From a virus (lineage: Duplodnaviria; Heunggongvirae; Uroviricota; Caudoviricetes): a stretch of 8,587 bases of DNA. How positions within the stretch are numbered: the stretch's first letter is position 1; each line of letters begins with the position of its first letter. Of the stretch, positions 6,001-8,587 are shown one piece after another. The stretch lies in IMG/VR virus record IMGVR_UViG_2548876935_000013, positions 1 to 8,587 of that record; one strand, given 5' to 3'. Position numbers: made by a program.

Positions 6001-8587
6001 CGCCAATTCCGCCAAGCATTTGCATCACGCCATTAATTCCGACATGAACCTCGGTTGTGTAACGGTCTTGCCCTGACTGGTCTTTCCACTTTCTGGTTCT
6101 CAGCATTCCCTCGAAATAAATCTGATCACCTTTTTTCACATACTGCCCCACAACCTCAGCCAGTTTCCCGGATACAGCAACACGATGCCATTCAGTCAAT
6201 TCCTTTTGCTCGCCAGTATTTTTATCTCGCCATTGTTCTGACGTGGCTATTGTCAGGTTAGCGAACGCTGTACCTGATGGTGAGTATCGAACTTCCGGGT
6301 CTTGTCCTACCCGACCAAGGATAATCACCTTATTTACGCCTCTGCTTGCCATTTATGCCGCCTGTTTTAGTTCGTTAACTCTGATGTTCATTACCTGAAC
6401 GCATTTAGCCTGCGCCTCCTCATTGCCAGCCATTAATTGCCAGTCACGCTGATAACGCTCGATGAGTTTTTTCTTGTCAGTTTCTGTTGACGCATAATCG
6501 CTGAAGTCTTTCAGGATTTGTTCGCAGTCAACCGATGGAGATTTCTGGTTGGTATTTTCTGGTGATGGTTTGTTATCTGATGCTGGGATTGCCCATCCCG
6601 GCAGCGATGGAGGAAGCCAGTAAAATCCTGTTCCATCCTTCAGTTTTGCCCTGTGCCACCCCTGCTTTTTATCGAGAGATGTTTGTGCGAAACCTTCCTC
6701 AAGGTTATACAGATACCGACCGATTCCCCACTGAACGGCAGCACGCTTCATTGCACCGGAACGACCACCTTTTACGGCTTCTACCTGCGTGTTTTCAGCA
6801 GCATCCCATTTGGTTACCCATTCGGAATCAATCCTGATTGATATGCCGCATTCAACGCCTCCGTTGTTGGGAATATCGCGGTATTCATTGCGCCATCCTG
6901 CTTTGCCGCAAACATCGTCCAGGCGTTTCATGATTGCCCTGTTCGTGACATAAGCCAGCACCATAGCCCACACCTTGCCATCGCGTGTTTTACCGCTTTG
7001 CTGTATTCGCCATTCGATATCTTCAGGGCAGAATGGCTCATCGAATTTGTTCAAATCCATAATTCACCTCAGAATGGACACGGCCCAAGGAAATAACGCT
7101 GATTTAATACTTCAGTCTTTGCCGCATTTAAAAATACGCGAACACCTTCACGATCTCCCTTCTGGCGATACATTAACGCCTGCTGCGTGTACATGCGTCT
7201 CTGTAACTTGCTCTCCTTCACTGTGGTTGCAAGTGACATGAATATCTCCTTCGTTACCGATTAAATCTTTCATCTGACGAATGAATTCTTCGTCTGACCA
7301 GTTATCTGTAAAACTCATTTCCTGCGATACCACGGAAGGTTGATAGCTGATTTCATCGCTTTATTTGCTTCAAGCCACATTTTGGAATCACCAATAAATC
7401 GGGCTATTACTGCTTTGTTCTGTGCAGCACGAAGCATCTGGTGATTAATGGCTATTTCATTGCGCATAACGCCTCCAGTTGTTTCTTTGCTGCTCTGATT
7501 AATTGTTTAACTCGGCGTGATAATTCAGATTCGTGCGGGTAGAAAGCGGACATGACGCCGCTACCCGCGAGCTGAAAGTGCATCATGGGTAACTCCTTAT
7601 ATTTGATTGCATAACGAAAACGCCTCGAGTGAAGCGTTATTGGTATGCGGTAAAGCCGCGCTTAGGCGGCTGATGTTTCTTCTTTCAGGCTTTCGAGATA
7701 TTTACGTGGGTCGTCGTAACATTGGCATTCGCTGTACCAATCCACCCAGCGATCAGTAAGCCCCATCTCTGATAAATCTTCATCGGTAAGGCTCTCATCC
7801 CACATCTCAAGGCCGTTAGCATTGCAGTAATCAGGCTTGATGTTGTTGTCATACTGAAAGGCGTCATAATCAGCCAGTGCGTCCATCAGACGAACACCCT
7901 CTTCAACACTTGCCACTTCTACAATGAACGGCTTCATAGGTACTTGCGGGATATGCCAGACACGTAATTTCATATATCCTCCGTCAAAAAAATTGCCCTC
8001 ACACTGGAGGGCAAAGAAGATTTCCAATAATCAGAACAAGTCGGCTCCTGTTTAGTTACGAGCGACATTGCTCCGTGTATTCACTCGTTGGAATGAATAC
8101 ACAGTGCTTATTCGTACTAATAAAATACCCAATTTTCTGTTTCTTGGTTGTGTCCAAAGTTATATTCAATATCTGGTGTTGATGTATCAATATTCTTCAT
8201 ACCATCAACAAGAGTTGATACAACAGCCAAATCTTGTTTGATTCTCATTAAATGGTATTCCTTCCGGCGCAATAAACTTTCAATGGCAAGTTTCTTCGTT
8301 GGGAATGCAAAAGATCTTTCTGCATTTTTTGCTACTTTCTTAATTGCATATCTATTTCTCCTTTGTTTCCATTCCTGTAACCACTGATTTGGTGCTGGTT
8401 TAAAATTAACAATCCAATGCGCAGGAACCAACCATGCATAATGCTCTGTCTGATGAAAAGCTATATATTGAAGTGCGAATATTTTTATCCCATCTTCTTC
8501 AACTGTCGCCTGGAATCTCCAGAAAACAGGCATTCCATCATGTTCAGTTTCTGATTCAGGAAAAGGTACGCTCCATGATTTTGTCAT

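Follow-up and report, generated by a model that had tools for sequence, protein, structure and literature searches.

The window, a stretch of 8,587 nucleotides comprising positions 1 to 8,587 of the IMG/VR virus record IMGVR_UViG_2548876935_000013, carries a series of leftward early genes on its minus strand. From upstream to downstream, these are a gene for a P22 gp17-like superinfection-exclusion protein (7662..7973; PF17420, E 3e-53; PGAP coding sequence mapped from the related locus L001), cIII (7452..7586, 44 aa), kil (7315..7467, 50 aa), gp42.1 (7148..7318, 56 aa), gp42 (7069..7239, 56 aa), and the genes for a Rad52/Rad22-type single-strand annealing protein of 235 aa (6353..7060; PF04098, E 1.8e-25; phrog_1097, E 2e-129), a phage SSB of 168 aa (5846..6352; PF00436, E 1.6e-36), and the 98-aa Abc2, anti-RecBCD protein 2 (5536..5832; PF11043, E 3.9e-44). 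The SSB has a 15-aa extension past DDIPF that is conserved in related loci. Gene starts and ends were read from the sequence, with cIII and kil overlapping by 16 nt (7452-7467) and kil and gp42.1 joined by an ATGA at 7315-7318. The ORF listing and the sequence thus bear out the three overlapping minus-strand ORFs of 44, 50, and 56 aa of the original prediction, including its remark that the third enters the ORF track only through an upstream GTG (7148..7333, 61 aa; the ATG at 7318 gives 56 aa), and the gene order matches that of P22 (17-c3-kil-arf-erf). The proposed cassette of three genes, however, proved to be one of four; gp42 had been overlooked, and it is gp42 rather than gp42.1 that adjoins the annealase gene, sharing 92 nt with gp42.1 in the +1 frame. 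Chance ORFs were excluded for the three predicted genes by matches in Pfam (E 2e-30 for cIII and 1.7e-20 for kil) and PHROGs (E 6e-40 for gp42.1).

The first small gene is preceded by AAGGAG, 7 nt 5' of its ATG, and its family assignment identifies the predicted product as an HK022-class CIII, a lysogeny factor. The Pfam model PF08134 ('cIII') was covered over its full length (104.7 bits, cutoff 25), phrog_550 was matched as well, the PGAP name agrees, and the protein is 100% identical to the CIII proteins of HK022 and HK97, so that the resemblance to CIII noted in the original prediction is upheld. CIII of the HK022 class has been described as a separate class, and residues 14-37 of lambda CIII have been described as its most conserved region (Kobiler et al. 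2007, PMC1838920). This central helix region is kept in the window (HESELSRRVKQLIRAAKKQL, compared with HESLLDRITRKLRAGWKRL in P22; 42% identity over 36 aa, E 7e-5 by BLASTP), while the alignment to lambda CIII gave 33% (E 0.68) and the lambda_CIII model remained below threshold (E 0.17). If function is transferred by family membership, this peptide would form an amphipathic helix and act as a competitive inhibitor of FtsH, whereby CII would be stabilized and lysogeny favored. Inhibition of FtsH is established for lambda CIII.

The second gene, kil, begins within the end of cIII and has TGGAGG 5 nt 5' of its start. Its product matched PF06301 (72.6 bits, cutoff 27.6) and phrog_2055 (E 1.2e-35), is 100% identical to Kil of HK022 and HK97, and shares 54.5% identity over 33 aa with lambda Kil, where ARFIGDSKMW is aligned to ATFIGDEKMF and the Gly-Asp turn (lambda G19-D20) is kept, in agreement with the FIGD-KM motif noticed originally. 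The Kil core consists of a helix, a Gly-Asp turn, and a helix (PMC11762379), and the mechanism and HTH core of Kil have been described (PMC3961180 and PMC11762379). Based on these similarities, the gene is assigned to the lambda family of Kil proteins, predicted inhibitors of cell division (FtsZ ring). The helix-GD-helix peptide would block FtsZ-ring assembly in a ZipA-dependent manner, as established for lambda Kil, and no direct test of an HK022-type Kil is reported in PMC3961180 or PMC11762379. The RSK/RSSK motif at the C termini of lambda Kil homologs (PMC11762379), an auxiliary and nondefining feature of Kil, is absent from the window protein, which has a basic end (...LPWYRRK). P22 Kil (62 aa) was also considered as a homolog and was rejected, as BLASTP found no match.

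The third gene, gp42.1, encodes an acidic protein (pI 4.55) that belongs to phrog_2123 and differs from HK022 gp42.1 at a single residue (D18 in the window, E18 in HK022). Its only ribosome-binding site is AGGAA abutting the ATG, and its start therefore probably depends on the ATGA coupling to kil; the good ribosome-binding sites ascribed to all three ORFs are thus present at cIII and kil and lacking here. The gene is composed of two dissimilar parts. In the Arf-like N-terminal part of about 25 aa (7240-7318), omega was 0.2-0.4 versus an Enterobacter clade, variable sites were distributed over the three codon positions as 10, 12, and 29 with a significant third-position excess (p 0.0016), and the peptide motif MSIADTWSEDAFVRLM was retained in the Enterobacter-type clade, where the DNA had changed at ∼19 of 75 positions. 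The same N terminus was found with other tails, including a stand-alone 35-aa form on at least 1000 contigs and a form upstream of RecT (HK140). The tail of 31 residues (7148-7239), which runs out of frame through gp42, showed 13 nonsynonymous and 0 synonymous polymorphisms in its own frame, compared with 3 nonsynonymous and 10 synonymous in the gp42 frame over the same stretch, and an apparent omega of 1.7-6. These polymorphisms were drawn with a 19-mer at the kil/gp42.1 junction, i.e., anchored outside the overlap, because a sample of viral contigs obtained with the gp42 alignment contained only 100%-identical matches and was biased toward gp42 conservation. Selection maintaining the long tail was considered and rejected, since its length was matched or exceeded in 33-48% of 20,000 synonymous-codon resamplings of gp42 and the pattern of change in the overlap is that of ordinary single-coding sequence. 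AF2 predicted a helix at residues 9-19 and low pLDDT elsewhere, with the tail disordered. Only the first ∼25 codons of gp42.1, with the N-terminal helix (WSDEEFIRQM...), behave as coding, and the tail is unconstrained read-through, which would result incidentally when gp42 is read in its -1 frame. A promoter-like site within gp42.1 (7312-7285) is probably due to chance, the promoter count being below shuffle expectation, and so is a terminator-like hairpin at its stop (7152-7137), whose conservation does not extend to the CUS-3-type allele.

The fourth gene, gp42, encodes a basic protein (pI 10.1) identical to HK022 gp42 (100%) and matching phrog_1723 over 56 of 58 positions (E 4.5e-34); it has AAGGAG 7 nt 5' of its ATG, and its stop precedes the annealase ATG by 8 nt. 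It is a real, independent gene, because it is under purifying selection (omega 0.11-0.25), occurs in five loci that lack gp42.1 (L009, L010, L098, L116, and L117), has varied recombinase neighbors, and keeps a C-terminal PF. It is also better conserved than gp42.1. Across 177 related loci, the gene immediately downstream of gp42 encodes a recombinase of the Rad52, Erf, or Sak4 type; the neighbor was counted as Rad52-type 71 times, as Erf 85 times, as AAA_24/Sak4-like 13 times, and as HNH once. A scan of genome contigs with a narrow alignment yielded 8 loci only. The family is a narrow one of enterobacterial phages, to which some 20 clusters out of 1.84 billion representatives belong. A helical hairpin (H7-27/H30-51) was predicted by AF2 with a pLDDT of 88.5, and a Foldseek search of the PDB with this model returned generic helical hairpins only (rubrerythrin helices and designed binders), none at E<=0.001. 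At the C terminus (...YFLGxxPF), F50, L51, P55, and F56 are invariant in the alignments, and the terminal PF occurs in every full-length member examined, the most distant included, being missing only in frameshifted or truncated variants. A paralogous relationship between gp42 and Kil, both basic helix-GD-helix proteins, was considered and discarded (hhalign, 5%; PF06301 match in 0 of 9 family members).

Several lines of comparison bear on the role of gp42.1, which was originally placed in the slot of a recombination accessory factor or host-nuclease inhibitor. The motif [FW]SDEEFI is common to gp42.1 (WSDEEFI) and P22 Arf (FSDEEFI), and alignments between them were short, with 47% identity over 17 aa by BLASTP (E 0.005), a match of residues 5-26 to phrog_2445 (Arf) at E 0.013, and a family-versus-family hhalign probability of 15% (E 0.0017, 15 columns). 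The relationship to Arf rests on a 15-residue motif. The two proteins are comparable in size and charge (56 aa, pI 4.55, versus 47 aa, pI 4.05), and gp42.1, like Arf, has its start coupled to the upstream stop (an ATGA with kil) and its gene placed after kil and ahead of the annealase gene, but gp42 intervenes before the latter. PF17585, the Arf Pfam model, is carried by all true Arf homologs, and it matched neither gp42.1 nor any of 10 members of its family at E<=10; one source in nr calls the family 'accessory recombination function protein'. Judging from its position, gp42.1 is most likely a counterpart of P22 Arf, accessory to annealase-mediated recombination. The acidic composition given in the original prediction is confirmed, and its nuclease-inhibitor reading fails. 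That gp42.1 could be a functional analogue of lambda Gam, i.e., a RecBCD inhibitor, as its acidity and its third place after cIII and kil (the place of gam in lambda) might suggest, is barely credible, given that BLASTP found no match to Gam even at E 100 and word size 2, that its 56 aa compare with 138 aa in Gam, that its predicted structure is one short helix with a disordered tail, and that an anti-RecBCD protein is already present in the module, as in P22 and HK022. The anti-RecBCD function of the module belongs to Abc2 (5536-5832).

It may also be asked whether gp42.1 is a gene at all, as its conserved 5' end could merely mark, in the DNA, the border of two mosaic modules (a recombination linker) and be open by chance. 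The first ∼48 nt (MSFTDNWSDEEFIRQM) do stand as near-identical DNA before unrelated sequences (the gp42 overlap, the 35-aa, the SPN9CC, and the RecT-upstream forms), the N-terminal pN/pS within E. coli does not fall clearly under 1 (two haplogroups, with few sites, gave 0.32 and 1.67), and the ORF is often left uncalled by PGAP. Such a boundary, however, would not account for a motif kept in the Enterobacter-type clade despite the many DNA changes or for variation concentrated at third codon positions, and the ATG always overlaps the upstream stop as ATGA, whichever gene precedes; in addition, motif and position are common to P22 Arf, a genetically defined gene. The linker explanation is therefore considered quite improbable. 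Even less probable is a single two-part protein made from gp42.1 and gp42 by programmed +1 ribosomal frameshifting, with the separate ORFs as unshifted products. Natural fusions do occur, namely, the 83-aa Gp42.1 of HK97, joined in frame through two extra nucleotides, an 82-aa fused allele (P0114) in at least 24 NCBI E. coli assemblies within an otherwise intact cIII-kil-X-erf-abc module, and several further 82-aa variants with different junctions, and a strong SD-like GAAGGAG within gp42.1 just precedes the frame change, which may be likened to the SD-stimulated +1 shift known in prfB. Yet the differing junctions reveal no apparent conserved shift site, the fused forms are for the most part singletons, for which sequencing error or prophage decay may be responsible, and variable sites per codon position in the overlap (30, 31, and 64) resemble those of single-coding gp42 (29, 22, and 55), with no sign of a conserved slippery or stimulatory element; moreover, gp42 has its own ATG and strong ribosome-binding site, and it occurs in the five loci lacking gp42.1.

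With gp42.1 and gp42 taken as two separate genes, gp42 is most likely, from its position, a further accessory protein of recombination. Because it directly precedes three different recombinase types, its target is most likely a partner common to them (host protein or DNA) and not one specific annealase. A border between mosaic modules might, however, be all that the positions of gp42.1 and gp42 indicate. A bolder and rather unlikely proposal is that gp42.1 and gp42 form a recombinase-agnostic accessory pair, in which the free Pro-Phe end of gp42 might work like the C-terminal tip of SSB (...DDIPF) and the pair would dock to a partner in common, either host SSB-interacting proteins or the annealase/SSB complex, the SSB-tip analogy being drawn only from the unvarying C-terminal PF and the acidic-aromatic motif. 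If true, such a pair would explain the placement before Rad52-, Erf-, and Sak4-type recombinases, the tolerated fusions, and the action of P22 Arf.

With regard to annotation, the expectation that automated pipelines would overlook cIII and kil was wrong for PGAP, which annotates both: kil was named in all of the 25 best E. coli records, and cIII appeared in 5 of 5 RefSeq records examined as 'protease FtsH-inhibitory lysogeny factor CIII' or 'hypothetical protein'. For the gp42.1/gp42 pair, PGAP called either one or neither, never both, in the records examined. The third slot is annotated inconsistently because two real small genes overlap there by 80-95 nt in different frames. Among the four small proteins, none has a model in NCBIfam, and gp42.1 and gp42 have none in Pfam either, and the literature search returned no paper on gp42.1 or gp42; all four ORFs have stood in the HK022 and HK97 GenBank records for decades. 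The identification of cIII and kil here is thus a routine HK022-type assignment for genome annotation, while the constant location of gp42 directly 5' of a phage recombinase of any family is of modest biological interest.

Considering the family assignments, the 100% identity to HK022, and the synteny with P22 (17-c3-kil-arf-erf-abc) and HK022/HK97, the region is very probably a central part of the PL (leftward early) operon in a lambdoid prophage, with an HK022/HK97-type cIII-kil-gp42.1-gp42 block joined to a Rad52-type annealase-SSB-Abc2 module. The host of the prophage is E. coli, and the segment is ordinary lambdoid early-left DNA of a kind described before. A terminator-like hairpin with an 8-bp stem, a 4-nt loop, and a T-rich tail was found by consensus scan in the gap between the gp17-like gene and cIII (7619..7638, minus strand), and terminators are annotated at the equivalent place in P22 and HK97. 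It is presumed to be a tL-type terminator that would be read through by N-type antitermination, with a single polycistronic antiterminated transcript crossing it; the window does not extend to PL, N, or the immunity region. On this transcript, ribosomes would enter at the strong binding sites of the overlapping cIII and kil genes, gp42.1 would be translated by reinitiation at the ATGA junction, and gp42 would start separately at its own strong site located within gp42.1.

Compared with the lambda order cIII-kil-gam-bet-exo, the locus occupies the same position in the PL operon, its Kil is clearly homologous (PF06301, FIGD-KM turn), and the central helix region of CIII is alike at low similarity; unlike lambda, it has a CIII of the separate HK022 class (PMC1838920), a Kil without the RSSK C-terminal motif, no Gam, and a Rad52-type recombinase in place of Red-beta/Exo. 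The P22 PL operon (17-c3-kil-arf-erf-abc1-abc2) shares the gene order, the overlapping start/stop architecture, the upstream gp17 homolog, Abc2, a related C3, and a small acidic Arf with the [FW]SDEEFI motif, whereas its Kil is unrelated, its Arf model (PF17585) fails on gp42.1, and, with no gp42 homolog, its arf adjoins erf directly. HK022 and HK97 (AF069308, X16093, and AF069529) differ from the window in carrying Erf, an Abc1-like protein, and Abc2 downstream, where the window has the Rad52-type annealase, SSB, and Abc2; the P22 gp17-like gene upstream of cIII is a further difference, as is the fused 83-aa Gp42.1 of HK97. In the block itself, CIII, Kil, and gp42 are 100% identical to their HK022/HK97 counterparts and gp42.1 is one residue off, with gene order, overlaps, and start codons identical to those of the window.

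The segment upstream of the annealase gene carries four overlapping minus-strand genes, cIII, kil, gp42.1, and gp42, all of which long-known phages carry base for base. The original prediction described a three-gene cIII-kil-gam/arf-like cassette, and its ORFs were found at 7452-7586 (cIII, 44 aa), 7315-7467 (kil, 50 aa), and 7148-7333, the last, gp42.1, being 61 aa long from a GTG and 56 aa long when read from the ATG at 7318 (7148-7318). Exactly as claimed, cIII and kil overlap by 16 nt (7452-7467), and kil and gp42.1 meet in an ATGA (7315-7318). Missed, however, was the fourth gene, gp42 (7069-7239, minus strand, 56 aa), which shares 92 nt with gp42.1 in the +1 frame, stops 8 nt short of the annealase ATG, and has the best ribosome binding site of the region after that of cIII (GAAGGAGATATTCATG). 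The good ribosome binding sites proposed for the three ORFs are present, with good spacing, at cIII (AAGGAG) and kil (TGGAGG), but gp42.1 has only AGGAA abutting its ATG, and its translation therefore probably depends on coupling to kil.

The identities of the first two genes were supported by matches to Pfam PF08134 (cIII family; E value of 2e-30) and PF06301 (Lambda_Kil; E value of 1.7e-20), with which PHROGs agreed. Moreover, phages HK022 and HK97 encode CIII and Kil proteins that match these two at 100% identity, and GenBank X16093 bears the labels "cIII gene product (AA 1-44)" and "kil gene product (AA 1-50)." CIII proteins fall into two classes, lambda-type and HK022-type, and those of HK022, HK97, and H-19B are identical (Kobiler et al. 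2007, PMC1838920). Pairwise comparison aligned the 44-aa protein with P22 C3 (42% over 36 aa; E value of 7e-5) and lambda CIII (33%; E value of 0.68) and the 50-aa protein with lambda Kil (54.5% over 33 aa, including the FIGD(S/E)KM turn), bearing out the proposed resemblance to the CIII helix and the Kil motif. No match to P22 Kil was obtained in pairwise comparison, so the P22 analogy holds for the gene layout, but for kil in position only. By megablast, the segment at 7000-7700 occurred in 2,090 of 5,426 complete E. coli genomes (≥80% query coverage in 239). A 60-aa cutoff renders cIII and kil invisible and lists gp42.1 solely from its GTG; nevertheless, PGAP names kil in 25/25 of the best E. 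coli records and calls cIII in 5/5 RefSeq records examined, as "protease FtsH-inhibitory lysogeny factor CIII" or "hypothetical protein," and the claim that both genes escape automated annotation is therefore incorrect.

Related loci were gathered from IMG/VR, GTDB genomes, and phage records, and 177 of them were analyzed. The gp42 gene, identical here to HK022 gp42, is robust: its Nei-Gojobori omega was 0.11 to 0.25 against diverged clades, with synonymous sites saturated, and it occurs without any gp42.1 in Erwinia phage 59, Salmonella phage ABTNLsp11242, a Kluyvera prophage, and two IMG/VR viral contigs (L116 and L117). Every full-length sequence examined, down to 36 to 48% identity, ends in ...(Y/E/H)F(L/I)xxxPF, and only frameshifted or truncated variants lack the ...PF end. 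AlphaFold2 predicted this basic protein to form a helical hairpin (residues 7 to 27 and 30 to 51; mean pLDDT of 88.5) with a free five-residue tail; a Foldseek search of the PDB returned nothing specific, and no Pfam or NCBIfam model covers it. Among 1.84 billion cluster representatives, only 20 clusters were recovered by profile search, and the family is therefore narrow. Directly downstream there was always a phage recombinase of one of three families, namely, Rad52-type annealase (71 loci), Erf (85 loci, and one more behind an HNH gene), or AAA_24 (Sak4/RecA-like; 13 loci). In PHROGs, the families of gp42 (phrog_1723) and gp42.1 (phrog_2123) are both labeled "recombinase" without visible basis, and the label passes into RefSeq phage re-annotations; since no recombinase similarity was detectable for either family, this is probably a propagated misannotation.

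The gp42.1 ORF equals HK022 gp42.1 save for one substitution. Only its initial ∼25 codons are genuinely coding; its gp42-overlapping tail is unconstrained. Against the Enterobacter clade, which retains MSIADTWSEDAFVRLM despite ∼19 differences in 75 nt, these codons showed an omega of 0.2 to 0.4. Their minimum mutations by codon position were 10, 12, and 29 (chi-square P = 0.0016). The N-terminus also carries other tails, including a stand-alone 35-aa acidic form on at least 1,000 contigs and a form upstream of the RecT module in HK140, and is always ATGA coupled to the preceding gene, whichever that is. In HK140 (L181), an unannotated 35-aa Arf-like ORF (MSFTDNWSDEEFIRQMNKMLNQHKEQEKDDDSDSE) lies at 1501-1608 upstream of RecT, ATGA coupled to a cIII-like gene and overlapping the next gene by 23 nt; the same peptide is found on at least 1,000 contigs in the protein collection. 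For the overlap, polymorphisms were sampled with a 19-mer anchor at the kil/gp42.1 junction, making locus selection independent of the overlap itself. They comprised 13 nonsynonymous and 0 synonymous changes when read in the gp42.1 frame but 3 nonsynonymous and 10 synonymous changes when read in that of gp42. The apparent omega in the gp42.1 frame was 1.7 to 6, and third positions were as variable in the overlap as in the nonoverlapping part of gp42. In addition, the tail differs wholly in sequence between clades (lengths of 52, 54, 56, and 60 aa), resampling of gp42 synonymous codons left the −1 frame open to at least the observed extent in 33 to 48% of trials, and AlphaFold2 predicted for gp42.1 one short helix (residues 9 to 19), the remainder being of low confidence.

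Natural fusions show that joining gp42.1 to gp42 is tolerated. For instance, two extra nucleotides in HK97 (AF069529, 1950-2201) put the last 37 residues of gp42 in frame with gp42.1, which accounts for the annotated 83-aa Gp42.1, while an independent 82-aa fusion (P0114), for which a 1-nt deletion was inferred from the protein junction, is carried by at least 24 NCBI E. coli assemblies, where the surrounding cIII-kil-X-erf-abc module is intact. In-frame fusions of the gp42.1 N-terminus to the gp42 C-terminus lie at the HK97 coordinates given above and at 1501-1749 of related loci L303 to L306, and further variants with other junctions were singletons. Such in-frame fusions raise programmed frameshifting across the overlap as an explanation, which we consider very improbable because the junctions vary and no extra constraint, as expected of a conserved shift site, is seen in the overlap.

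The third ORF had been placed in the slot of Gam or a recombination accessory factor. The Gam reading was wrong: no sequence similarity to Gam was found, and an anti-RecBCD protein, Abc2, is encoded separately in the module (5536-5832, minus strand; PF11043, E value of 3.9e-44). P22 Arf (47 aa, pI 4.05), encoded between kil and erf, has the motif FSDEEFI, matching WSDEEFI in gp42.1. BLASTP between them gave an E value of 0.005 over 17 aa, comparison with phrog_2445 ("Erf recombination cofactor Arf") gave 0.013, and family-versus-family hhalign gave 0.0017 but with a probability of only 15% across 15 columns; a 61-aa variant is called "accessory recombination function protein" in one nr source. 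These similarities are weak but consistent, and the Arf reading is only suggestive. However, PF17585, present in all true Arf homologs, had no match at an E value of ≤10 in gp42.1-family members. We therefore treat gp42.1 as resembling Arf in its position, size, and charge and in a single motif, rather than as a demonstrated Arf member.

Elsewhere in the window, a LacY-family sugar permease gene (1-1248, plus strand) adjoins the prophage end, and no tRNA gene was found. On the minus strand, the adjacent 66-aa ORF (1777-1977) has the same sequence as the TorI that PGAP annotates in a related E. coli prophage, an excisionase-like response-regulator inhibitor. A full-length sRNA-Xcc1 match (Rfam RF02221; 2909-2997, minus strand; 69.3 bits versus a gathering score of 53) sits between the AntA-type antirepressor gene (2246-2869, minus strand) and the next ORF. 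The phage SSB (5846-6352, minus strand) runs past the canonical DDIPF by 15 residues, with a second LPF in the extension (5846-5893); the extension was present at 54 of 61 D[DE]IPF sites downstream of gp42 in related loci, ruling out a local frameshift.

The region is a standard lambdoid early-left operon. On the minus strand, an ORF in the HK97 gp45 position (8117-8587), a P22 gp17-like gene (7662-7973), and a terminator-like hairpin (7619-7638) precede cIII, and the Rad52-type annealase (6353-7060), SSB, Abc2, and an Ea22-like gene (4191-4844) follow gp42. P22 and HK97 have an annotated terminator upstream of cIII in the same place as this hairpin. Moreover, the module has the SAP, SSB, and anti-RecBCD composition listed under prototype HK75 (Table 1 of PMC12315714), with Abc2 filling the anti-RecBCD part.
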